From Candidatus Cryptobacteroides merdavium (lineage in GTDB: Bacteria; Bacteroidota; Bacteroidia; Bacteroidales; UBA932), in NCBI GenBank assembly GCA_017694755.1, contig JADIMO010000016.1, positions 18,647-82,646 on the forward strand: DNA of 64,000 nucleotides. The letters run 5' to 3'. The notes beneath the pieces are model-generated. The model worked only from the letters and a program-made list of their open reading frames with translations. It ran no database searches and was not told the origin of the DNA. Below, in pieces: positions 4,259 through 14,593 of this stretch; position 1 is the first letter of the stretch; the number at the start of each line of letters is the position of its first letter. A program made the translations under genes and the position numbers.

Positions 4259-4319
4259 AAATTTTTTTTACATATATTTGTAGAGGATTTATTTTGGTAT
4301 GCATTAAAAAATCTTGTTC

Positions 4320-5318
4320 ATGAGAAAACCCACAATAAAAGATGTTGCAGAAAAAGCAGGCGTGTCGGTTGGACTGGTATCAATGGTACTCAACAACAAG
4401 AAAGGCGTAAACAAAGAAACCGCCGAAAAAGTAATGAAAGTTGTCAAAGCCATGAAATATACTCCCAACAAAACAGCTTCAGCTTTACGTGCAGGATATA
4501 ACAAGACAATAGGAGTCATAACTCCGGACCTTGCCAATCATTATTTTTCAGATATTTCAAGACATATAGAAAACATCGCATTCGACAACGGATACACTGT
4601 CCTTTTCGGGAGTTCAGACGACAGGCCAGATAAAATCGGCAAGTTGATAGAAATATTTTATGCCAATGGCGTGAAAGGTATACTTCTGAGTCCGTGTGAC
4701 GAGTGCACAGCAGAAATCAAAAGGGCCCTCAGACTTGGCATGTCAATAGTGATGATGAACAGGGATCCGTTGGAGAACAACAATACCGGGCATGTGCTTC
4801 TGGACAATGAAAAAGCCGTCAGGATGGGACTTGTCCATCTGCTTGACAACGGTTACAGGCATATCGAAATGATATCCAACAACATCATGCTCTCAACATT
4901 GAAAATGAGAGAAAACAGCTACCTCGCAGCAATCGCTGAACTCGGTCTTCAAGATACAGCCAAAATAAATTTTGCCGATGAACGGAAACCGGATGAACTT
5001 GACTCAATCCTTAAAGGGATATCGGAACGGGGAGTGGACGCAATAATGGTACCAAGAGGTTATCTGGCACTGCATGTTGCCAATTCAATAAAGAGAATCG
5101 GGCTGCATATTCCCGATGATATTGCCTTGATTGGATTTGACGGAGGTGAAACTTACAAGATAGTGACACCGACCATCACACAACTGGTACAAAACACCAG
5201 AAAAACTGCAGAAATCTCATACAACATGCTATATGAAATGATGCATGGCGGACAGGCTGGCTATGTTCTGATTGAACCCGAACTGGTCATCGGTGAATCA
5301 ACCAGAAGAAAATACTGA
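4320..5318 (+). CDS. LacI-family transcriptional regulator
   Basis: TIKDVAEKAGVSVGLVSMVLN HTH, YTPNKTASALR hinge, periplasmic-binding-type C-terminal domain (IPDDIALIGFD). Confidence 0.93.
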   Translation: MRKPTIKDVAEKAGVSVGLVSMVLNNKKGVNKETAEKVMKVVKAMKYTPNKTASALRAGYNKTIGVITPDLANHYFSDISRHIENIAFDNGYTVLFGSSDDRPDKIGKLIEIFYANGVKGILLSPCDECTAEIKRALRLGMSIVMMNRDPLENNNTGHVLLDNEKAVRMGLVHLLDNGYRHIEMISNNIMLSTLKMRENSYLAAIAELGLQDTAKINFADERKPDELDSILKGISERGVDAIMVPRGYLALHVANSIKRIGLHIPDDIALIGFDGGETYKIVTPTITQLVQNTRKTAEISYNMLYEMMHGGQAGYVLIEPELVIGESTRRKY

Positions 5319-5417
5319 TGCACCACAGAATGACTGAAACTTGGGAATACTGAATATGAACAAATATCCAAACAGGATAAATCCTGTATGCCTTCTGCCG
5401 GAAATTCCATCTGCGTA

Positions 5418-5651
5418 TCAGAAAAGTGTCGGATGGTTGTCCTGGAGTTCGGAGAGGACTTTTTCCATGACGGCTTCGCGGTAGAGGACGGCCCTGGTGT
5501 GGACATTGAAGCGGCTGCAATATTGGTCTATGGCGGCCATTTCGCTGTCGTTGAGATAGATGACCTGCCTGTGACGGCGCACGAGGGAGGCCTTCTGCTT
5601 TTTGAGATATTCGGGATCGACTCCTGATATGGTGCTTTTCTTCTTTTTCAT
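5418..5651 (-). CDS. Small hypothetical protein, possible ribbon-helix-helix fold
   Basis: RHRQVIYLNDSEMAAIDQYC...LYREAVMEKVL...HPTLF resembles a small conserved Bacteroidales protein (recalled); start placed at ATG 5651. Confidence 0.65.
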   Translation of the reverse strand: MKKKKSTISGVDPEYLKKQKASLVRRHRQVIYLNDSEMAAIDQYCSRFNVHTRAVLYREAVMEKVLSELQDNHPTLF

Positions 5652-5839
5652 CCTGCGCTTGAATCCGTATTTTCCGGAAAATTTCACAAAAATAGCAATT
5701 TATGCGGATTCACACGGACAATATTCAGACTTTGCACAAATCTCAAAATGTTTTCATCGGATTTCTGCATTAATCTCAAAATTCAACGAATCTGAAAATT
5801 GACACAGCAATGACATTTTCATTAAATTTTATTCCGATA

Positions 5840-5872
5840 TTGCAGGATATTCGGAAAAAGGTACTACATTTG
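5840..5872 (+). promoter_or_regulatory. Bacteroidota primary-sigma promoter for the arg leader/operon
   Basis: TACATTTG at 5865-5872 matches -7 TAnnTTTG; weaker TTG at 5840-5842; lies 9 nt before the leader ATG. Confidence 0.65.
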
Positions 5873-5881
5873 CCGACAATT

Positions 5882-5977
5882 ATGAAAAATATGGGCGAAA
5901 TACAGGTTTTCAATTTTCAGCTGTGGATGGTCAGATGCCACGGCAATCTCGCCTATAATCTTGTCCGACGACGATAA
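5882..5977 (+). CDS. Putative arginine-sensing leader peptide (31 aa, ends Arg-Arg-Arg-stop)
   Basis: MKNMGEIQVFNFQLWMVRCHGNLAYNLVRRR*; last three codons are CGA CGA CGA, then TAA; lies between the promoter and argA. Confidence 0.7.
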   Translation: MKNMGEIQVFNFQLWMVRCHGNLAYNLVRRR

Positions 5978-6113
5978 GACCGGACACTCCGGGTGCCGGG
6001 AAAGGCACAATTCCCTTTAAAATACATGCATAGTGGATTGCAATGGACAATCGAGGTTTGTCTTGCCGTTAGGGGACTTGTATGTCATACAGAAAAAGAA
6101 AATAAATCACAAG

Positions 6114-6686
6114 ATGAAGATTGATGTAATGGTGGCAGACGGAAGCCACGCGATTTATGCCCGGGAAATATGCGACGAAATGTTCATATCGGCGCAGGAG
6201 AGAGGCACGGGCATAGCCAGGAGAACTCCCGAATATGTAATCGGGAAAATGAAGGCGGGAAAGGCTGTGATAGCCGTTTCCGAAGACGGGCAGTTCGCAG
6301 GATTCTCCTACATCGAGACATGGGGAGGGAAGAAATATGTCGCCAATTCAGGACTGATTGTGGCGCATCCTTTCAGGGGGCTCGGGCTGGCTAAAAGAAT
6401 CAAGGAGCGCATATTCAGGCTTTCGCGCGAACTGTTCCCCGATGCAAAGATATTCAGCATCACCACAGGGGCTGCCGTGATGAAGATGAACTATGAATTC
6501 GGGTTCAGGCCGGTGCCCTTTTCGGAACTGACTGACGATCCGGAATTCTGGAAAGGATGTCAGGGATGCAGGAATTTCCAGATACTGCAGAACAACAATT
6601 ACCGGATGTGCCTCTGCACGGGGCTGCTCTACGACCCGAAGGAGCATATAGCGATACAGGAAATAGAAATCCGCAAGGCACAATAG
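6114..6686 (+). CDS. argA: GNAT-family N-acylglutamate synthase (Bacteroidota ArgA-type)
   Basis: RGTGIARRTPEY, YVANSGLIV, IFSITTG, DDPEFWKGC..C; first gene of the arg cluster; start moved to ATG 6114. Confidence 0.75.
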   Translation: MKIDVMVADGSHAIYAREICDEMFISAQERGTGIARRTPEYVIGKMKAGKAVIAVSEDGQFAGFSYIETWGGKKYVANSGLIVAHPFRGLGLAKRIKERIFRLSRELFPDAKIFSITTGAAVMKMNYEFGFRPVPFSELTDDPEFWKGCQGCRNFQILQNNNYRMCLCTGLLYDPKEHIAIQEIEIRKAQ

Positions 6687-6736
6687 ATGCCGGAGGCAAA
6701 CTACACTGACAATAAAATATCCATACACAAAAATAT

Positions 6737-6830
6737 CCCCAAGGAGTCATCCCGAGCGCAGTCGAGTGATCTGTGGAATAAAACTGACAACATGGGGAAT
6801 TATTCCAGACAATAATAAAAACAATGCATA
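6737..6830 (+). repeat. Dispersed repeat, copy 1 (upstream of argG)
   Basis: CCCCAAGGAGTCATCCCGAGCGC (6737-6759) matches 11350-11372 at 22/23; a second similar block lies nearer the start codon. Confidence 0.7.
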
Positions 6831-8047
6831 TGAACAACAAGGTGGTGCTTGCATTCAGCGGCGGTCTGGACACTTCATTCTGTGTCCCTTATCTGAAAAA
6901 TGAAAAAGGACTTGAAGTCCATACGATAATGGTCAATACGGGAGGCTTCTCCAAAGAGGAGGAGGAACGGATTGAAAAACGAGCACTGGAACTGGGTGCA
7001 GCCTCCCATGTGAATGTCAATGCTGTGGACACATACTACAGCAAGGGACTCAAATACCTGATATTCGGGAATGTGCTGAAAAATGCGACCTATCCGCTCT
7101 CGGTAAGTTCCGAAAGGATATTCCAGGCTCTTGAAGTCCTGAAACATGTGAAGAAGCTCGGGGCCGCCTGCGTTGCCCACGGCAGCACAGGGGCAGGCAA
7201 TGACCAGGTGCGCTTCGACATAGTCTTCAACATCCTGGCTCCGGAAGTGAAGATAATAGCCCCTATCAGGGAACTGTCCATCACCCGCAAGGAAGAGATT
7301 GACTATCTGCAGAAACACGGCTTCGACTGGTCGTGGGAAAAGGCAAAATATTCCATCAACCAGGGACTCTGGGGCACGAGCATCGGAGGTGTCGAAACCC
7401 TTTCGTCAGACGGATGGCTGCCTGAGGAGGCATATCCGACCAAGGTCACGAAATCCGGACAGGAACACATCAGAATCGGCTTCGAGAAAGGCGAGCCGGT
7501 GTCATTCAACGGCAAGAAGATGTCTCCTGTGGATGTGATTCTTGCAGTGCGTGAGGCGGCTGCCCCATACGGAATCGGAAGGGACATCCATGTGGGCGAC
7601 ACCATCATAGGCATCAAGGGACGCGTGGCATTTGAAGCCGCAGCCCCGCTCATCCTCATCAAGGCCCATCACCTCCTCGAAAAGCATGTGCTCACAAAGG
7701 GCCAGCTCTACTGGAAGGACATGATTTCCGGATGGTACGGCCAGCAGATGCACGAGGCCATGTACCTCGATCCGGTGATGAGGGACATGGAAGCCATGAT
7801 GGACAGCATGGAGCAGAATGTGAGCGGAGAAGTGGAAGTGGCGCTGATGCCTTATCATTTCTCGGTGCTCGGATGCAAGAGCAGCCATGACCTGATGAAT
7901 TCATCATTCGGTGCCTACGGAGAGATAAACAAGTCATATTCCGGGGAAGATGTGGTCGGATTCACGAAAGTGCTTGCCAATCCGCTGAAGATATATTATA
8001 AGGTGAATGGAGTTGACGCGGCAAGGTCCGTGGAAGGAAAGGAATAA
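6824..8047 (+). CDS. argG: Argininosuccinate synthase
   Basis: VVLAFSGGLDTS, AHGSTGAGNDQVRF, IIGIKGRVAFEA. Confidence 0.97.
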   Translation: MHMNNKVVLAFSGGLDTSFCVPYLKNEKGLEVHTIMVNTGGFSKEEEERIEKRALELGAASHVNVNAVDTYYSKGLKYLIFGNVLKNATYPLSVSSERIFQALEVLKHVKKLGAACVAHGSTGAGNDQVRFDIVFNILAPEVKIIAPIRELSITRKEEIDYLQKHGFDWSWEKAKYSINQGLWGTSIGGVETLSSDGWLPEEAYPTKVTKSGQEHIRIGFEKGEPVSFNGKKMSPVDVILAVREAAAPYGIGRDIHVGDTIIGIKGRVAFEAAAPLILIKAHHLLEKHVLTKGQLYWKDMISGWYGQQMHEAMYLDPVMRDMEAMMDSMEQNVSGEVEVALMPYHFSVLGCKSSHDLMNSSFGAYGEINKSYSGEDVVGFTKVLANPLKIYYKVNGVDAARSVEGKE

Positions 8048-8098: not shown

Positions 8099-9070
8099 AT
8101 GATAAGAGCAGCAATAGCAGGAGGCACTGGCTATACCGGAGGGGAACTTTTCAGGATACTCCTGAACCATCCGGAGGTGGAAATAGTCGCGGCGACCACC
8201 ACTTCTTCCGAGGGTACGCCCGTATGTGAAGTGCACAGGGACCTCATAGGAGAGACATCACTGAAATTCGGGACGGAACTGAACGACCCGGATGTGCTTT
8301 TCCTATGCCTCGGGCACGGGATCTCAAGGGAGTTCCTGGACAGCCATGACATCAGCCCCGACTGCAGGATAATAGACCTCGGGAATGACTTCAGAATCGA
8401 CGGGGACCATGCAGGAAGGCATTTTGTCTACGGACTGTGCGAAGCCGTCAGGGACAGGATACGCAATGCGCACGACATCGCCAACCCGGGATGCTTCGCC
8501 ACAGCCATACAGCTCGCCCTGCTGCCACTTGCAGGCTCCAGTCTGATAAATGACGAAATACATGTGACAGCCATAACCGGCTCGACAGGTGCGGGGAAAA
8601 AGCCCGGAGAAACGACCCATTTCAGCTACAGGGACAACAACATCTCGATCTACAAACTTTTCAGGCATCAGCATCTGGCTGAAATCAGGAAAAACATCGG
8701 GGCCGTCTCCGGGGCAGAACCCGTCATCAACTTCGTGCCGATGCGCGGGGATTTCACACGTGGAATATTCGCAAGCGTCTACACAAGGGCTGCCGCAGGA
8801 ATCACCGAAACGGAATACAGGGAACTGTATGAAAAATATTACGAAGATTCGCCTTTCGTGTTCGTGTCCGACGACGGGATATCGCTCAAGGAGGTGGTGA
8901 ACACCAACAAAGGGCTCCTGCACATTGAACTCCACGACGGATATGTGCACATCAGCTCCATCATCGACAACCTCGTGAAAGGGGCATCCGGACAGGCGGT
9001 GCAGAACATGAACCTGATGTTCGGGCTGGATGAAAGTGCAGGACTGAAACTGAAGGGCTCGGCATTCTGA
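8099..9070 (+). CDS. argC: N-acetyl-gamma-glutamyl-phosphate reductase
   Basis: GGTGYTGGEL, IANPGCFATA, IDNLVKGASGQAVQNMN. Confidence 0.97.
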   Translation: MIRAAIAGGTGYTGGELFRILLNHPEVEIVAATTTSSEGTPVCEVHRDLIGETSLKFGTELNDPDVLFLCLGHGISREFLDSHDISPDCRIIDLGNDFRIDGDHAGRHFVYGLCEAVRDRIRNAHDIANPGCFATAIQLALLPLAGSSLINDEIHVTAITGSTGAGKKPGETTHFSYRDNNISIYKLFRHQHLAEIRKNIGAVSGAEPVINFVPMRGDFTRGIFASVYTRAAAGITETEYRELYEKYYEDSPFVFVSDDGISLKEVVNTNKGLLHIELHDGYVHISSIIDNLVKGASGQAVQNMNLMFGLDESAGLKLKGSAF

Positions 9071-9086
9071 GATTGTAAAAGATTTG

Positions 9087-10250
9087 ATGAAAATGGAACT
9101 TTTCAAGACATACAAACTTTGGGACATAGAACCTGTCAGGGGACTTGGCACGACTCTGTGGGACAGGGACGGAAAGGAATACACAGACCTCTACGGGGGC
9201 CATGCCGTCATTTCCGTCGGGCATTCGCATCCGCATTATGTGAAGATGCTGACTGAACAGCTCGGCAGGCTCGGATTCTATTCCAATGCCGTGCAGAACT
9301 CCCTGCAGAAGGAGCTTGCCTCACGGCTCGGGAAAATCAGCGGTTATGACGACTATTCCCTTTTCCTGTGCAACTCAGGAGCGGAAGCCAATGAGAACGC
9401 GATGAAACTCGCCTCCTTCCACACCGGGAAAGGCAAGATCCTGGCTTTCAGGAAGGCTTTCCACGGCAGGACATCCGGAGCGGTCGCAGCCACTGACAAC
9501 CCGGAGCTCCGCTCCCCTTTCAACGGATGCGGCAACGTGACTTTTGCAGAGCTCGGTGACCGTGACGGGGTGGAAAAAGCCCTTGCCACAGGAGAATATG
9601 CAGGAGTGATTGTAGAGGGGATACAGGGGGTCGCCGGAATATATGAGCCGGGGGATGACTTCCTCAGATGGCTGCGCACGGCCTGCGACAAGTACGGGAC
9701 AATGCTGATACTGGACGAAATACAGTCAGGATACGGCAGGACCGGGAAATTCTTCGCCCACCAGTTTCCCGGCATCCGTGCAGACATCATCACCACAGCA
9801 AAAGGCATGGGAAACGGCTTCCCTATAGGCGGAGTGCTCATTTCCCCGGTGATAAAGGCTGAATACGGAATGCTCGGCACCACTTTCGGAGGCAATCACC
9901 TTGCATGCACGGCGGCACTTGCCGTGCTGGACATCATCGAAGACGAGCGTCTGATGGAAAATGCGGCGAAAGTCGGGGAATATTTCCGCAGGGCGTTCTG
10001 CGGTGAAGGTACCGGCACGAAACAAAATGCACCCGACCCGGCGCTGAAGGAATACCGCGGACGGGGACTTATGATAGGCCTTGAAATAAAGGAGGAATAC
10101 AAGGGGCTGCGCGACAGGCTGCTGTTTGAGAGGCATTTCTTCACCGGAGCCGCCGGAGCCGATGTGATAAGGCTGCTGCCGTCACTCACGATTTCCGAAG
10201 AAACGGCAGGAAAGTTCGTGAAGGCATGGAAAGAGCTGACAGGACAATGA
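9087..10250 (+). CDS. argD: Acetyl/succinyl-ornithine aminotransferase
   Basis: CNSGAEANE, FHGRT, LDEIQSG.GRTG, TAKGMGNGFP, GTTFGGN. Confidence 0.95.
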   Translation: MKMELFKTYKLWDIEPVRGLGTTLWDRDGKEYTDLYGGHAVISVGHSHPHYVKMLTEQLGRLGFYSNAVQNSLQKELASRLGKISGYDDYSLFLCNSGAEANENAMKLASFHTGKGKILAFRKAFHGRTSGAVAATDNPELRSPFNGCGNVTFAELGDRDGVEKALATGEYAGVIVEGIQGVAGIYEPGDDFLRWLRTACDKYGTMLILDEIQSGYGRTGKFFAHQFPGIRADIITTAKGMGNGFPIGGVLISPVIKAEYGMLGTTFGGNHLACTAALAVLDIIEDERLMENAAKVGEYFRRAFCGEGTGTKQNAPDPALKEYRGRGLMIGLEIKEEYKGLRDRLLFERHFFTGAAGADVIRLLPSLTISEETAGKFVKAWKELTGQ

Positions 10251-10251
10251 T

Positions 10252-11241
10252 TCATTCAATGCCCCCGGATGCCAATCTCCGTTTCTCATTTTTCCTTGAT
10301 TCACGGCCCTCACGTTCAACATCGGCCCTTGACTTGCTCCTGTTGACAAGGAGGACTCCCGAAAATACAAGGATAACGGCAACAAGCTTGATGATGTTGA
10401 ATGAATCCATGCCCCAGAGCACGGCAATGAAGGTGGCGACCACAGGCTGGACATAATTGTACATAGCCACAAGGGTCGGGCGCAAAGTCTTCTGTCCCAC
10501 AGGGACAAGAAGGTAACAGATGAATGTTCCGCAGAAAAGGATGAAGGCAAGCCCGGCATACTGCTCCACAGGGACTGAAGCCCATGGCTCCGACACGAAC
10601 TGCACTATGGTCAGAGGCAGCATAACGGCGGAAGCGAAGGTGAACATCCATTTCATGAGCGTAAGCGGGGAATATTTGGCAATGAGATCTTTGAAAAGAA
10701 CGAGATATGTGGCATAGGAGCATTGGGCGAACAGGCAGAGCAGGTCACCCCAGATATTGGAAGATGCCCCTTGCGCCGCAACGGACTGCCCGGCTCCAGG
10801 CATAAGACGGTTGCCGAAAACGAGAAGGATGGCTCCGCCCATGCCGAGAAGCACTCCGGCGGCTTTTCTGGAAGTTATCGGCTCCTTCAGGAATATGGCA
10901 GCCAGAACCATGGTGACGATAGGCATGGAAGTGGTGATAATGGAGGCATCGACAGGAGAGGTCATCGAAACTCCGGTAATGAAGACTCCCTGGTTGAGGA
11001 TTATTGCAAACATGGCGGCACCGAAAAGCTTGACATAGTCTTTTCTGTCCACCTTTTCCTTGGGTGCGAAAGGAGAGAAAAGCCAGAAAAGCAGGGCTGC
11101 ACCGAAAATCCTCACATCAGTGACGGCAACGGAACCGAGCAGACCGGCTGACATCACAAACTTTGAAATGGGCGCCATCGCACCCCACATCATACTCGCC
11201 ACCAGCATCGAAAGATGCCCTTTCCTCTGATCTTTTGTCAT
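10252..11241 (-). CDS. EamA/DMT-family transporter, antisense within the arg cluster
   Basis: About 10 TM helices in two EamA-like repeats; own -7 element TATTTTTG at 11264-11271 (minus), so start moved to ATG 11241. Confidence 0.88.
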   Translation of the reverse strand: MTKDQRKGHLSMLVASMMWGAMAPISKFVMSAGLLGSVAVTDVRIFGAALLFWLFSPFAPKEKVDRKDYVKLFGAAMFAIILNQGVFITGVSMTSPVDASIITTSMPIVTMVLAAIFLKEPITSRKAAGVLLGMGGAILLVFGNRLMPGAGQSVAAQGASSNIWGDLLCLFAQCSYATYLVLFKDLIAKYSPLTLMKWMFTFASAVMLPLTIVQFVSEPWASVPVEQYAGLAFILFCGTFICYLLVPVGQKTLRPTLVAMYNYVQPVVATFIAVLWGMDSFNIIKLVAVILVFSGVLLVNRSKSRADVEREGRESRKNEKRRLASGGIE

Positions 11242-11349
11242 GGTCTTGAATCTTTTGAGCCGGCAAAAATACAACAAAAAACAATTCATTGTCCTGACAG
11301 ACTGAAAAACAAAAAAGGAATAATAACATGATTATCCGCAAAGTACCTA

Positions 11350-11457
11350 CCCCAAGGAGTCATCCGGAGCGCGGTAGGACTACGCTCTACGGGCGGAACG
11401 ACGGCAACAAGAGGGATTGTTGCGGACAATCATAATAAAAAACATTTGATGCAGATA
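11350..11457 (+). repeat. Dispersed repeat, copy 2 (upstream of argF')
   Basis: CCCCAAGGAGTCATCCGGAGCGC 11350-11372; hairpin GCAACAA-gaggga-TTGTTGC 11404-11423. Confidence 0.7.
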
Positions 11458-12410
11458 TGAAACATTTTACGTCAGTCACGCAGCTCGGCGACCTCACCGC
11501 CGCATTTGAAAAGGCAAGGTATGTGAAAGAAAATCCTTTCGCCGACCAGAATCTGGGCAGGAACAGGACCCTGCTGATGATATTCTTCAATTCCAGCCTG
11601 CGCACAAGGCTCAGCACACAGAAAGCCGCGATGAACCTCGGCATGAATGTGATAGTCCTCGACATCAACCAGGGCGCATGGAAACTTGAGACGGAAAGAG
11701 GCGTTGTGATGGACGGCGACAAGCCTGAACACCTGCTCGAAGCCATTCCGGTAATGGGATGTTACTGCGATGTGATAGGCGTCAGGTCATTTGCAAGGTT
11801 CGAGAGCAGGGAATATGACTACAACGAAACCATCCTAGAGCAGTTCATAAGATACTCCGGCAAGCCGGTGTTCAGCATGGAGGCGGCGACAAGGCACCCG
11901 CTCCAGACCTTTGCGGACATGATCACCATAGAAGAATACAAGACCAAGGCAAGGCCGAAAATCGTGATGACATGGGCACCTCATCCGAAAGCCCTCCCGC
12001 AGGCCGTGCCTAACTCATTTGCCGAAGGCATCAACATGACGGGATATGAATTCGTCATCACACATCCGCACGGATATGAGCTTGACCCGGCATTTGTGGG
12101 GAATGCAAAAGTGGAATATGACCAGGACAAGGCCCTCGAAGGGGCGGATTTCGTCTATGCCAAGAACTGGGCGGCATACAGCGGCGACAACTACGGCAAG
12201 GTGCTGAGCACTGACCGCTCCTGGACAGTGGACAGCAGGAAAATGGCACTTACTGACAACGCATATTTCATGCACTGCCTTCCGGTGCGAAGGAACATGA
12301 TAGTCACAGATGACGTGATCGAAAGTGAAAGGTCCCTTGTCATCCCCGAGGCGGCAAACAGGGTCGTTTCTGCCCAGGTGATACTGAAAGAAATTCTCCA
12401 GGGGCTATGA
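11457..12410 (+). CDS. argF: N-succinyl-L-ornithine carbamoyltransferase (ArgF')
   Basis: FNSSLRTR, HCLPVRRN; MDGDKPEH has Pro where N-acetylornithine-type enzymes have Glu. Confidence 0.9.
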   Translation: MKHFTSVTQLGDLTAAFEKARYVKENPFADQNLGRNRTLLMIFFNSSLRTRLSTQKAAMNLGMNVIVLDINQGAWKLETERGVVMDGDKPEHLLEAIPVMGCYCDVIGVRSFARFESREYDYNETILEQFIRYSGKPVFSMEAATRHPLQTFADMITIEEYKTKARPKIVMTWAPHPKALPQAVPNSFAEGINMTGYEFVITHPHGYELDPAFVGNAKVEYDQDKALEGADFVYAKNWAAYSGDNYGKVLSTDRSWTVDSRKMALTDNAYFMHCLPVRRNMIVTDDVIESERSLVIPEAANRVVSAQVILKEILQGL

Positions 12411-13318
12411 AAATAAAAGTAATAAAGATCGGCGGGAATGTGGTGGACAACGAAGTCCTGCTGGAACAGTTTGCAAAAGACTTCGCGGCACTGGAAGGGC
12501 CAAAGATACTCGTCCACGGAGGCGGTGTAGCGGCAAGCCGCATGCAGAAGCAGCTTGGCATGGAGCCGCAGATGGTCGCAGGGAGAAGGGTGACCGATGA
12601 CGGCACCCTGCAGATCGTGACAATGGTCTATGCCGGCTGGTGCAACAAGCACATCACCGCCCTGCTGCAGAAGAACGGATGCAATGCCATCGGGATGACA
12701 GGAGCCGACGGGAATGCCATCTGCGCATCAAGAAGACCACCGATGATGATTGAGGGCCATGGCACTGTGGATTTCGGCCATGTCGGGGATGTCACACCGG
12801 AAAGCATAAACCCGGGATTCCTGATGCAGCTGCTCTCCGCCGGACTCACTCCGGTGTTCTGTGCCATAAACCACGACGGAAATGGGCACCTGCTGAACAC
12901 TAATGCCGATACGGTGGCCTCGTCAATAGCCGTAGCCTTCGCCAATTTTCCGGCACCGGACGGAAACGGTGCCGAAACATCCTCGATAAAAGATCCGGGA
13001 CAAGCATCGGACAGCCGTGAGAAGACAGACAAAGGCACCGGCCCGACAAAGAACAGCCGACATGAAGTGGAACTCATATACTGTTTTGAAAAGGACGGGG
13101 TCCTCCACGACAAGGACGATGACAGCAGTCTGATTCCTGTGCTCACACATGAATCATACATGGAACTCAGGCAGGAAGGCCGCATCGCCGACGGGATGAT
13201 CCCGAAATTGGACAATTCATTCCAGGCCATGGATGCCGGAGTCGCAAAAGTAATAATAAAACATGCCGGGAACCTCAACTCGGACAAAGGGACAGTCCTC
13301 ACAAAGGACAGACAATAA
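12407..13318 (+). CDS. argB: Acylglutamate kinase
   Basis: VIKIGG, LVHGGG, RVTD, LLNTNAD, GMIPKL. Confidence 0.95.
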   Translation: MKIKVIKIGGNVVDNEVLLEQFAKDFAALEGPKILVHGGGVAASRMQKQLGMEPQMVAGRRVTDDGTLQIVTMVYAGWCNKHITALLQKNGCNAIGMTGADGNAICASRRPPMMIEGHGTVDFGHVGDVTPESINPGFLMQLLSAGLTPVFCAINHDGNGHLLNTNADTVASSIAVAFANFPAPDGNGAETSSIKDPGQASDSREKTDKGTGPTKNSRHEVELIYCFEKDGVLHDKDDDSSLIPVLTHESYMELRQEGRIADGMIPKLDNSFQAMDAGVAKVIIKHAGNLNSDKGTVLTKDRQ

Positions 13319-13363
13319 CAATAACAGACTCCGGACCTGACCCGGAACAATTCCCTTGATGAC

Positions 13364-14593
13364 ATGAAGACTTGGCACAAATACACCGGAGATGCAGCCG
13401 GGCTGCTGAAGGAAATGGTGGCAATCCCCTCCCCCTCTTTTCATGAGGAGGATGTCTGCCGTCACATTTCAGCAAGGCTGACGGAATTCGGAATCGGACA
13501 TAAAGTGGCGGGAAACAACATCGTGGCATACAACAGACATTTCAAGCCCGGGAAAAGGACGCTGATGCTGAATGCCCATATCGACACCGTAGGCCCTTCA
13601 GAGGGATATTCCTTTGACCCGTACAGGCCGGATTATGAAACTGCTGTCCGTCCGGTAATGACCTCCCTTGAAGAAGAGATGAAAGGCTGCACCATGACGG
13701 ACAAAGACGCAGACTCTGAATATACGGTGCCGCTGAGCAGCAATGATTTCATCTGCGGATTGGGCAGCAACGATGACGGAGGCTCCGTGGTGGCCATGAT
13801 TTCCGCATTCAGGCATTTCTACGAAATGGAACTGCCGGTAAACCTGATGCTTGCCCTCACTTGCGAAGAAGAGAGGTCCGGGAACGGAGGCATGACATGG
13901 CTCTGGGACCATTTCCCATATCCTGCAGGAGAGGCGGACTACGGAACTTCCAATACGGACAGCAGCACTTTCCATCCGGACTGGGCCATAATCGGAGAAC
14001 CGACAGGGATGAAGGCTGCGATTGCCGAAAGGGGACTTCTCGTGCTGGACGGGGAAGCACGAGGGGTCAGCGGACATGCGGCCCGGGAAGAGGGTGTGAA
14101 TGCCCTTTATATTGCCATTGAAGACATTGAAAGGCTCAGGAAACATGAATTTGCCAAGATATCCCCGGCAATGGGCAAGGTAAAACTGACTGTCACACAG
14201 ATAAACGCCGGGACTGCACACAATGTGGTGCCGGACAGCTGCAGGTTCGTCGTGGACATAAGGCCGACAGAAATGTACGGCAATGAAGAAATTCTCCGCG
14301 AGCTGCAGGCGGAATGCCGCAGCACCCTCACCCCGCGCAATCTCCTGAACAGGTCATCCGCCACAGCTGCAAACTCTCCTCTCGCCGGATGCGCCAAGGC
14401 CCTCGGATTGGAAACATTCTCCTCACCCACCACTTCAGACTGGATGAGAGTACATTGCGATGCAATGAAGATGGGGCCAGGAGAATCCTCCCGTTCGCAC
14501 AGGAAAGACGAGTTCATCCTTGTCAGCGAAATCAGCCATGCCATCGGCACATATATAAAATTCATTGAAACATTCATTGAAAACCGACTCTGA
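13364..14593 (+). CDS. argE: M20-family acylornithine deacylase (ArgE-like)
   Basis: LNAHIDTV, GLGSNDDGGS, CEEE, IIGEPT, HRKDE; located in the arg cluster. Confidence 0.85.
   Translation: MKTWHKYTGDAAGLLKEMVAIPSPSFHEEDVCRHISARLTEFGIGHKVAGNNIVAYNRHFKPGKRTLMLNAHIDTVGPSEGYSFDPYRPDYETAVRPVMTSLEEEMKGCTMTDKDADSEYTVPLSSNDFICGLGSNDDGGSVVAMISAFRHFYEMELPVNLMLALTCEEERSGNGGMTWLWDHFPYPAGEADYGTSNTDSSTFHPDWAIIGEPTGMKAAIAERGLLVLDGEARGVSGHAAREEGVNALYIAIEDIERLRKHEFAKISPAMGKVKLTVTQINAGTAHNVVPDSCRFVVDIRPTEMYGNEEILRELQAECRSTLTPRNLLNRSSATAANSPLAGCAKALGLETFSSPTTSDWMRVHCDAMKMGPGESSRSHRKDEFILVSEISHAIGTYIKFIETFIENRL

Follow-up and report, generated by a model that had tools for sequence, protein, structure and literature searches.

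In the classical amino-acid attenuators (the trpL, hisL, leuL, thrL, pheL and ilvL leaders) a short upstream open reading frame (uORF) lies right after the promoter and carries codons for the cognate amino acid near its end. Arginine biosynthesis stands apart from these: it is the standard repressor-governed amino-acid pathway, controlled by ArgR and not by attenuation, and in Bacteroides argR heads the arg cluster. Leader-peptide attenuation itself is represented in Bacteroidetes by the Bacteroid-trp leader. The closest experimental case is orf34 (speFL), the leader of speF in Salmonella and E. coli, in which ribosome pausing at consecutive Arg codons selects the structure of the mRNA (PMC6386406); its target is ornithine decarboxylase, an enzyme of polyamine synthesis, and its output combines RNase G sensitivity with Rho and with effects on the ribosome-binding site. 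The subject here is a leader in a 64,000-nucleotide (nt) stretch of the genome of Candidatus Cryptobacteroides merdavium (contig JADIMO010000016.1; the whole stretch is called the window), lying in front of an arginine operon that is headed by a GNAT acetyltransferase gene and continues with argG, argC and argD. Our reading, to which we assign a probability of roughly 0.72, is that this leader is a leader-peptide attenuator through which the ribosome senses arginine on behalf of the GNAT-argGCD operon, ArgR having been lost from this lineage.

The leader resembles orf34 in its uORF of about 30 codons and in its presumed mode of action, that is, pausing at Arg codons and alternative structures set by the arginine supply; it differs in its target (an arginine biosynthesis operon), in its phylum, and in having no sequence similarity to orf34. 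With ArgR repression at ARG boxes it shares both operon and signal, but the device is a cis-acting, translated RNA leader instead of a protein on DNA. Further traits in common with the classical attenuators are a stop codon embedded in a hairpin, alternative and probably mutually exclusive pairings downstream and, in most of the classes defined below, a U-rich stretch after a long stem. The departures from them are several: 1) the amino acid is arginine; 2) one invariant rare codon, kept at a constant spacing from the stop, mostly takes the place of a long run; 3) there is no match to an Rfam family (cmscan of positions 5000-7000, with E up to 10, returned chance matches only, far under the gathering scores); 4) an invariant hairpin module is attached. 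Full-text literature searches on arginine leader peptides or arg-operon attenuators returned nothing relevant.

A preliminary description, made from the letters of the window, had pointed to a promoter-like TACATTTG, to a 31-amino-acid (aa) ORF ending CGA CGA CGA TAA, and to a gap of 136 nt before an argA-like gene. The sequence bears this out. The ATG of the uORF, at 5882, lies 9 nt past TACATTTG; the three CGA codons occupy 5966-5974 and the TAA 5975-5977; the GNAT reading frame opens 136 nt beyond that stop. The features are thus as described, and only the limits need amending: the span that had been marked begins at the promoter box, and the GNAT ATG is at 6114, not 6115. CGA, which had been judged uncommon by eye, is the rarest Arg codon of the genome (860 of 33,072, or 2.6%, counted over 1,209 long ORFs in its assembly). 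CGACGACGA occurs in 13 copies on the two strands of the 2.5-Mb assembly, and the copy in the uORF is the only one followed by a stop codon. One AGA accompanies the three terminal CGA codons as the remaining arginine codon of the window's uORF.

How would these CGA codons be read? ARAGORN identifies tRNA-Arg genes with anticodons ACG, CCG, CCT and TCT in the window's assembly, which is 89% complete, and does not find tRNA-Arg(UCG) there, so that CGA is presumably decoded solely by wobble of tRNA-Arg(ACG), presumably with inosine at position 34. In a his-leader assay in Salmonella the tRNA that serves CGU, CGC and CGA decodes CGA poorly, and among the CGN codons it is pairs of CGA that de-attenuate most strongly (PMC4046918).

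The comparison set consists of 120 distinct leaders related to that of the window and chosen by the pattern of a downstream hairpin (hairpin C, described below). An ATG-started uORF is present in 107 of them, 14-19 nt past a TAnnTTTG box; four further leaders have a uORF behind a non-canonical box, and the leaders with uORFs come from four genera and more. A CGA near the stop therefore recurs among relatives, which is what the preliminary description had proposed to look for by alignment. Every one of the 107 uORFs contains CGA. The last CGA stands two codons ahead of the stop in 92, one codon ahead in five (the window's among them) and five codons ahead in ten, and the stop is TAG in 101. Arg makes up 15% of all codons in these uORFs, and 187 of their 302 Arg codons (62%) are CGA, against 2.6% genome-wide. 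The neighbours of the critical codon behave differently: the Leu codon ahead of GUC-CGA varies among CTT, CTC, TTA and CTA, and the codon that follows GUC-CGA is exchanged synonymously or conservatively among Ile, Leu and Met; synonymous sites are saturated, and CGA is constant. At the first Val-Arg site of the longer uORFs (class III, below) Arg is constant and its codon is not, being mostly CGA, AGA in the window and AGG in one relative (L033). The synonymous variation at Leu and the codon changes at the first Arg site suggest that the sequence is read as codons.

The second body of evidence is the distribution of ArgR. The preliminary description had called the operon argR-less, and neither ArgR domain (PF01316, PF02863) is found in the window's assembly. 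Orthologues of the GNAT gene lead the arg cluster in relatives, and in 40 of these they split: those under 62% identity have argR directly upstream, and among the nine that exceed 72% ArgR is missing from seven. In the first 10 orthologous loci the leader element and ArgR are likewise exclusive, and in sister species argR occupies the exact place of the leader. The upstream regions of six of the seven ArgR-less relatives have in common a motif of about 35 nt, TTGCAATTGACAATCTCGGTTTGTCTTGCCGTTAGGG, of which the window carries a slightly variant form at 6038-6075. (In the seventh, genome G005 and its locus L007, a tRNA gene at 1415-1488 takes the expected place of the leader and ends 3 nt before the GNAT start; it encodes tRNA-Thr(CGU) and not a tRNA-Arg.)

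A wider sample of 401 genomes of the family was searched for a 26-nt motif (the core of hairpin C), for ArgR_C and for argC. In the window's genus argC is present in 41 of 56 sampled genomes, and these 41 divide into 18 with the motif and 23 with ArgR, none with both and none with neither; argR heads the arg cluster in half of the genus. In the whole sample ArgR occurs in 48 genomes and the motif in 23, never together, and neither PF01316 nor PF02863 turned up in the 23 genomes with the motif. Kinship among the genomes precludes a p-value; the partition is nonetheless what the replacement of one regulator by another predicts. An entire family of abundant uncultured Bacteroidales of gut and rumen (Candidatus Cryptobacteroides and relatives) appears to have exchanged ArgR for a translated leader, and the all-or-none swap inside one genus amounts to a natural experiment on regulatory replacement. 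That the uORF might be a chance ORF and its CGA run without function is scarcely credible: short ORFs are frequent in AT-rich leaders, but such an origin is contradicted by conservation through 107 leaders, by the invariance of a rare codon, by the uniqueness of CGACGACGA followed by a stop, and by the perfect partition with ArgR.

The uORFs fall into classes. Class I encodes 11 aa (MxxxGxIFVRL) and class II 14 aa (MLCVYYQSSRRDRR, ending ..SRRDRR); class III, which includes the window, encodes about 30 aa of the form ..VRR......LVR(I/L); class IV ends ..VR(I/L/V)(Q/P/E)EA; class V is a mixed remainder. Classes I and III keep L-V-R-(I/L) at the C-terminus, which class II and the window do not. 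Conservation of this kind raises the question of whether the nascent peptide itself is the sensor, its C-terminus (..L-V-R-I/L-stop) arresting the ribosome at the stop codon when arginine is plentiful, in the manner of the fungal arginine attenuator peptide, of TnaC (tryptophan) or of SpeFL (ornithine). The conserved motif, the fixed distance from Arg to stop (two codons in 92 of 107), the preference for UAG (101 of 107) and the synonymous variation of the surrounding Leu and Ile/Leu codons would all suit an arrest peptide. If the peptide were all that matters, however, the Arg codon should vary synonymously as well, and instead the rarest codon, CGA, is there in 107 of 107; moreover, the motif common to class I (..IFVRL) and class II (..SRRDRR) shrinks to Arg alone, and the window ends RRR-UAA. 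A stall at CGA, signalling low arginine, and a stall at the stop, signalling high arginine, would also have near-identical footprints and contradictory meanings. We regard peptide arrest as very unlikely.

The 26-nt motif is missing from other genera of the family that have no ArgR, yet the same operon is preceded there by uORFs with GUC-CGA-CGN in a hairpin loop. It follows that the Arg-codon leader is family-wide and that the invariant hairpin is an added module. The leaders of such genera (L168-L184) have Arg leader peptides of their own before the GNAT gene, typically ..H-V-R-R-C.., with GUCCGACGA at an apical hairpin loop and with differing downstream structures (examples are L168 1440-1700 and L183 1560-1780); the uORF of L183 ends NLVRRR-stop, as the window's does. 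In L047 and L140, which have an Arg uORF (MRRPYITQLLLRVRK/E) as well as hairpin C, the next GNAT-like start lies more than 220 nt downstream, and the 3' flank, CGUUAGUCCCC, deviates from the consensus.

The end of the uORF is built into secondary structure. In the window the loop of the stop-codon hairpin consists of two CGA codons and the first base of the third, and the stop lies in the 3' arm. In most relatives a GGAGG...CCUCC hairpin has the stop UAG at the head of its 5' arm: in 92 of 107 leaders the G-run begins at stop position +2 and pairs with a downstream CCUCC. With its A site on CGA, a ribosome whose footprint is about 13 nt would mask precisely the G-run arm. Inside the class III uORFs runs a long helix whose cis complementarity (-12.7 kcal/mol, against -10.0 +/- 0.5 for permuted partners; 28 leaders, none of 5000 permutations as good) is accompanied by compensatory pairs: ACAGGUA:UACCUGU, ACAGGUG:CACCUGU, GGCAAC:GUUGCC and GGAACAGAC:GUCUGUUC.

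We infer the following course of events. The transcript would start a few bases past TACATTTG, and the 31-codon uORF would be translated immediately. When charged tRNA-Arg is scarce the ribosome would stall at the terminal CGA codons, its footprint keeping the stop-codon hairpin open; this would free a C-rich strand and let the downstream part of the leader, the base of hairpin C included, pair anew, whereupon transcription, mRNA survival or translation would proceed into the operon. With ample arginine the ribosome would terminate and depart, the stop-codon hairpin would shut, and the off-state would form.

The preliminary description had proposed a particular set of pairings, a nested series joining 5940-46 to 6063-69, 5946-51 to 6052-57 and 5961-66 to 6045-50. 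It can be drawn, yet the partners are unconserved in relatives, and the duplex between uORF and hairpin (RNAduplex, 30 shuffles) has a mean z of -0.06 over 107 leaders and -0.85 in the near-identical leader L039; z values of about -1 to -2.6 are confined to class II. The observation made there is thus real and partly confirmed, and its core, that the leader senses arginine through the ribosome, is well supported by the uORFs in 107 of 120 leaders, their CGA codons with synonymously varying neighbours, and the ArgR partition, the ribosome probably reporting arginine shortage; the specific pairing scheme is not supported, because shuffled sequences equal it. What had been overlooked is that 6041-6066 is a near-invariant element in its own right.

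That element is hairpin C. Its consensus is GCAA-[U N]-GACAA-[U C N M G G U]-UUGUC-UUGC, and variation within the pattern-chosen set is confined to two bases of the loop and the second of the bulge; of the bulge bases, the first is U in 120 of 120 leaders and the second U in 110, C in six and G in four. The 26-nt core CAATNGACAATCNNGGTTTGTCTTGC occurs once per genome in 23 of the 401 family genomes, spread over four genera (a reversed control gave 0 matches). In the species collection at least 119 contigs carry it, and these are assigned to Candidatus Cryptobacteroides or to unclassified Bacteroidales of rumen, caecum and faeces. The core is not found in other families among 300 genomes of the order, where three matches at 3 mismatches are at chance level. 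A mismatch-tolerant search of the family turned up a single variant of the hairpin, and that one is compensatory (C-G to U-A, in L048). Hairpin C is near-invariant while the protein encoded downstream is only 55-80% identical. In the window its inner extension is GAU/GUU and its 3' flank CGUUAGGGGA; among the leaders at large the inner extension AAU is paired with GUU or AUU in about 90%. The GC stem at the base of the hairpin has compensatory changes (GUCCC:GGGAC, GACCC:GGGUC, CACCC:GGGUG, CGCC:GGCG, CUCUC:GGGAG) and a cis complementarity of -5.83 against -4.99 +/- 0.18 for permuted partners (none of 2000). (A technical note: pair counting of the basal stem in a fixed register is weak, the register differing among classes, and whole-leader RNAalifold recovers hairpin C and one 5-bp stem only, MAFFT misaligning the variable stems.)

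What does hairpin C recognize, if anything? The arginine sandwich motif has been defined in eukaryotic and viral RNAs: the TAR bulge and 7SK ASM3 (A39-U40U41-G42A43) share a secondary structure in which the arginine side chain lies between the preceding base and the bulged U, the latter in a triple with an A-U pair (PMC6189040). Like TAR and 7SK SL1 (PMC6189040), hairpin C has an A-U pair, a bulge starting with U, a G-C pair and an A-U pair. One can therefore imagine a small arginine-binding riboswitch in series with the CGA leader and compatible with a working uORF: free L-arginine stacked in the bulge would make the hairpin more rigid and promote the off-state. As far as sequence and secondary structure go, all 120 leaders have the A-[U N]-G-A / U-C-U arrangement; only the first base of the bulge is fixed, as it is in TAR. 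Also in favour are the near-invariance of the hairpin next to a much more divergent protein and a loop restricted to UC-N-M-GG-U with M always A or C, hence always holding AGG or CGG. Nine loci, moreover, have the hairpin with no uORF, and in three of them (L004, L054, L060) a copy of the 5' arm could capture the 3' arm in the manner of an expression platform. Against this, the likeness spans about five positions, an arrangement that a few percent of bulged hairpins would show by chance; the entire 26 nt are invariant, well beyond the bulge; the window itself has UG in the bulge, and a possible G6045-U6063 pair would alter it; TAR binds arginine only at the millimolar level; and TAR and 7SK are bound by arginine-rich peptides, the rest of hairpin C being without counterpart in either. 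We consider a riboswitch unlikely. Were it real, a single leader would sense both free arginine and charged tRNA-Arg, and hairpin C, if it binds arginine, would be the first natural arginine riboswitch.

Two groups among the loci without an Arg uORF deserve mention. In L004, L054 and L060 hairpin C lies at about +6 of the transcript, followed on its 3' side by an AU-rich hairpin and the 5'-arm repeat (GCAAG..GACAAAC); in L105, L146 and L121 it comes directly after the stop of a same-strand upstream gene. They demonstrate that uORF and hairpin C are separable modules. The loop itself (6051-6057 in the window) occurs in the 120 leaders in all eight N-M combinations, and so always displays an Arg codon, AGG or CGG, which no single tRNA decodes. 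A T-box-like reading was dropped: there is no specifier/UGGN arrangement, and no single tRNA would serve both loops. A kissing or pseudoknot interaction between loop and uORF, suggested by L037 and L041, was also dropped, the complements of each loop variant being no commoner in cis than those of the others.

Invariance over 26 nt is typical of protein-binding sites, and it may be asked whether a trans-acting, arginine-responsive protein has replaced ArgR, binding hairpin C as RNA or DNA and leaving the uORF a secondary role. The candidate would be a 77-aa protein encoded divergently from the leader. Its gene adjoins the leader in 51 of the 57 class I and III loci, with 60-96% identity, and the predicted succession of helix, strand, helix and helix could be that of a ribbon-helix-helix DNA binder (the AlphaFold2 model is weak, pLDDT 68, and lays the chain out as helix, extended, helix and helix). 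But the family is present in 224 of the 401 genomes, including ArgR-positive and argC-less ones, the window's genome has a second copy, the gene is missing from the neighbourhood of classes II, IV and V, and no match was found in Pfam, among PDB sequences or by fold. As the missing regulator it was rejected on these grounds: too widespread, not specific to ArgR-less genomes, and matchless. A DNA operator is disfavoured by the asymmetry of the arms (a 2-nt bulge), by a distance from the promoter that ranges from 12 to 190 nt, and by the compensatory changes (in L048 and in the basal stem), which point to RNA. On balance a protein acting through hairpin C seems to us quite improbable.

Taking the leader as an arginine-sensing attenuator, how would the signal be converted into output? 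Two models remain. In Model T the extended hairpin C and the U-rich tail form an intrinsic terminator. This is the first choice for classes II-V, in which the 10 nt beyond the basal stem are about 60% U (class I has no U-rich tail), and it fits class IIIa in particular, where GGAGG (at the stop), CCUCC, GAGG and CCUC make up a 1:2 / 2:3 / 3:4 series. In Model E the extended hairpin C is instead the structure of the starvation state. In class I one strand serves both as the 5' base of hairpin C and as the 3' arm of the stop-codon hairpin, so that it is free only with a ribosome at the end of the uORF. The stretch of Arg codons in class II complements the loop and 3' arm of hairpin C; with the end of the uORF masked, hairpin C rises from a probability of 0.01 to one of 0.98. 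In the window the C-rich UUCCCU (6012-6017) can alternatively pair with AGGGGA (6071-6076), and opening 5980-5992 would release it to do so. The two models are opposite in direction, and thermodynamic folding alone is indecisive between them; hairpin C may form the top of a terminator, or it may be a sensor in its own right. Rho-dependent termination, or an RNase sensitivity like that of Salmonella orf34/speF (PMC6386406), are other outputs that may apply.

Folding with and without the ribosome-covered region, as the preliminary description had suggested, thus yields a clear switch in class II and a weak one in the window. The local hairpins that had been drawn there do exist (GUGCC/GGCAC at 5993-6008, or alternatively GGGAA/UUCCC and then UUU), and a terminator call at this site is at chance level; that the window has no strong U-tract terminator, and that its output was best left open, is agreed. 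A local attenuator of the 1:2 / 2:3 / 3:4 type at 5980-6018 was tried and rejected: masking the footprint lowers GUGCC/GGCAC from 0.99 to only 0.62-0.76, and the alternative reaches 0.16.

Several points weigh against the attenuator reading as a whole, and they are best listed together: 1) The near-invariance of GUC-CGA at the nucleotide level may also reflect a role of the RNA or of the peptide. 2) With an assembly that is 89% complete, the absence of ArgR and of tRNA-Arg(UCG) is unproven for this one genome. 3) All carriers are uncultured metagenome-assembled genomes, and the arginine response, the pausing and the translation are predictions from sequence. 4) Stalling favours the extended hairpin C in class I, in class II and in the window, which fits an on-state element and not a terminator. 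5) No terminator-antiterminator pair is convincing across classes; in the window, constrained folding shifts the local hairpins modestly, the terminator-like site made of GUGCC/GGCAC and UUCCCUUU is weak and at chance level (1 found, 0.6 expected), and there is no good U tract 3' of hairpin C. 6) An energy test with the 5' flank of the basal stem shuffled gave no gain. 7) Nine of the 120 loci retain hairpin C with no Arg uORF, which implies that the hairpin has a function of its own, beyond the leader-peptide model.

The design that emerges is an unusual one: a rare, wobble-read codon at a fixed distance from a stop that lies inside a hairpin, joined to a near-invariant TAR-like hairpin. Annotation pipelines overlook these uORFs, and metabolic models take arginine synthesis in such organisms as unregulated or as ArgR-regulated. 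The features of the locus are collected in Table 1.

Table 1. Features of the arginine leader, its operon and its upstream neighbour in the window
Feature	Position	Strand	Basis or remark
77-aa protein (MKKKKSTISGVDPEYLKKQKASLVRRHRQVIYLNDSEM...NHPTLF), divergent from the leader	5418-5651	-	Conserved; second copy on contig C77
Bacteroidetes-type -7 promoter box TACATTTG (TAnnTTTG)	5865-5872	+	Direct sequence reading
Leader peptide uORF MKNMGEIQVFNFQLWMVRCHGNLAYNLVRRR, 31 codons and TAA	5882-5977	+	ORF read from the sequence; homologues in related leaders
Intra-uORF long helix, 5890-5898 with 5949-5957	5890-5957	+	Fold; covariation in class III
Hairpin A, inside the long helix; loop has GUC AGA 5930-5935 (first Val-Arg site)	5923-5926 with 5938-5941	+	Fold
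Stop-codon hairpin, UCUUGUC (5959-5965)/GAUAAGA (5973-5979)	5959-5979	+	Fold
Local hairpins, CCGGA/UCCGG 5980-5992 and GUGCC/GGCAC 5993-6008; alternative GGGAA/UUCCC 5998-6015, then U-rich stretch	5980-6018	+	
Hairpin C with flanks; core 6040-6066, GCAA-[UG bulge]-GACAA-loop UCGAGGU-UUGUC-UUGC	6036-6076	+	Conservation, pair counts, permutation
GNAT acetyltransferase (argA-like), 190 aa, heads the operon	6114-6686	+	Pfam Acetyltransf_1/7
argG	6824-8047	+	NCBIfam
argC	8099-9070	+	NCBIfam
argD	9084-10250	+	NCBIfam
EamA/DMT-family transporter gene, antisense between argD and argF'	10252-11289	-	
argF' (acetyl/succinyl-ornithine carbamoyltransferase type), argB, ArgE/DapE-type deacylase	11457-14593	+	NCBIfam

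Two observations on the neighbourhood may be added. A LacI-family regulator gene (4314-5318, + strand), with no apparent link to arginine, lies on the 5' side of the 77-aa gene; its best NCBIfam matches are RbsR, UriR and PurR, all below cut-off. Downstream, the arg cluster is interrupted by the antisense transporter gene, beyond which it resumes with argF'.

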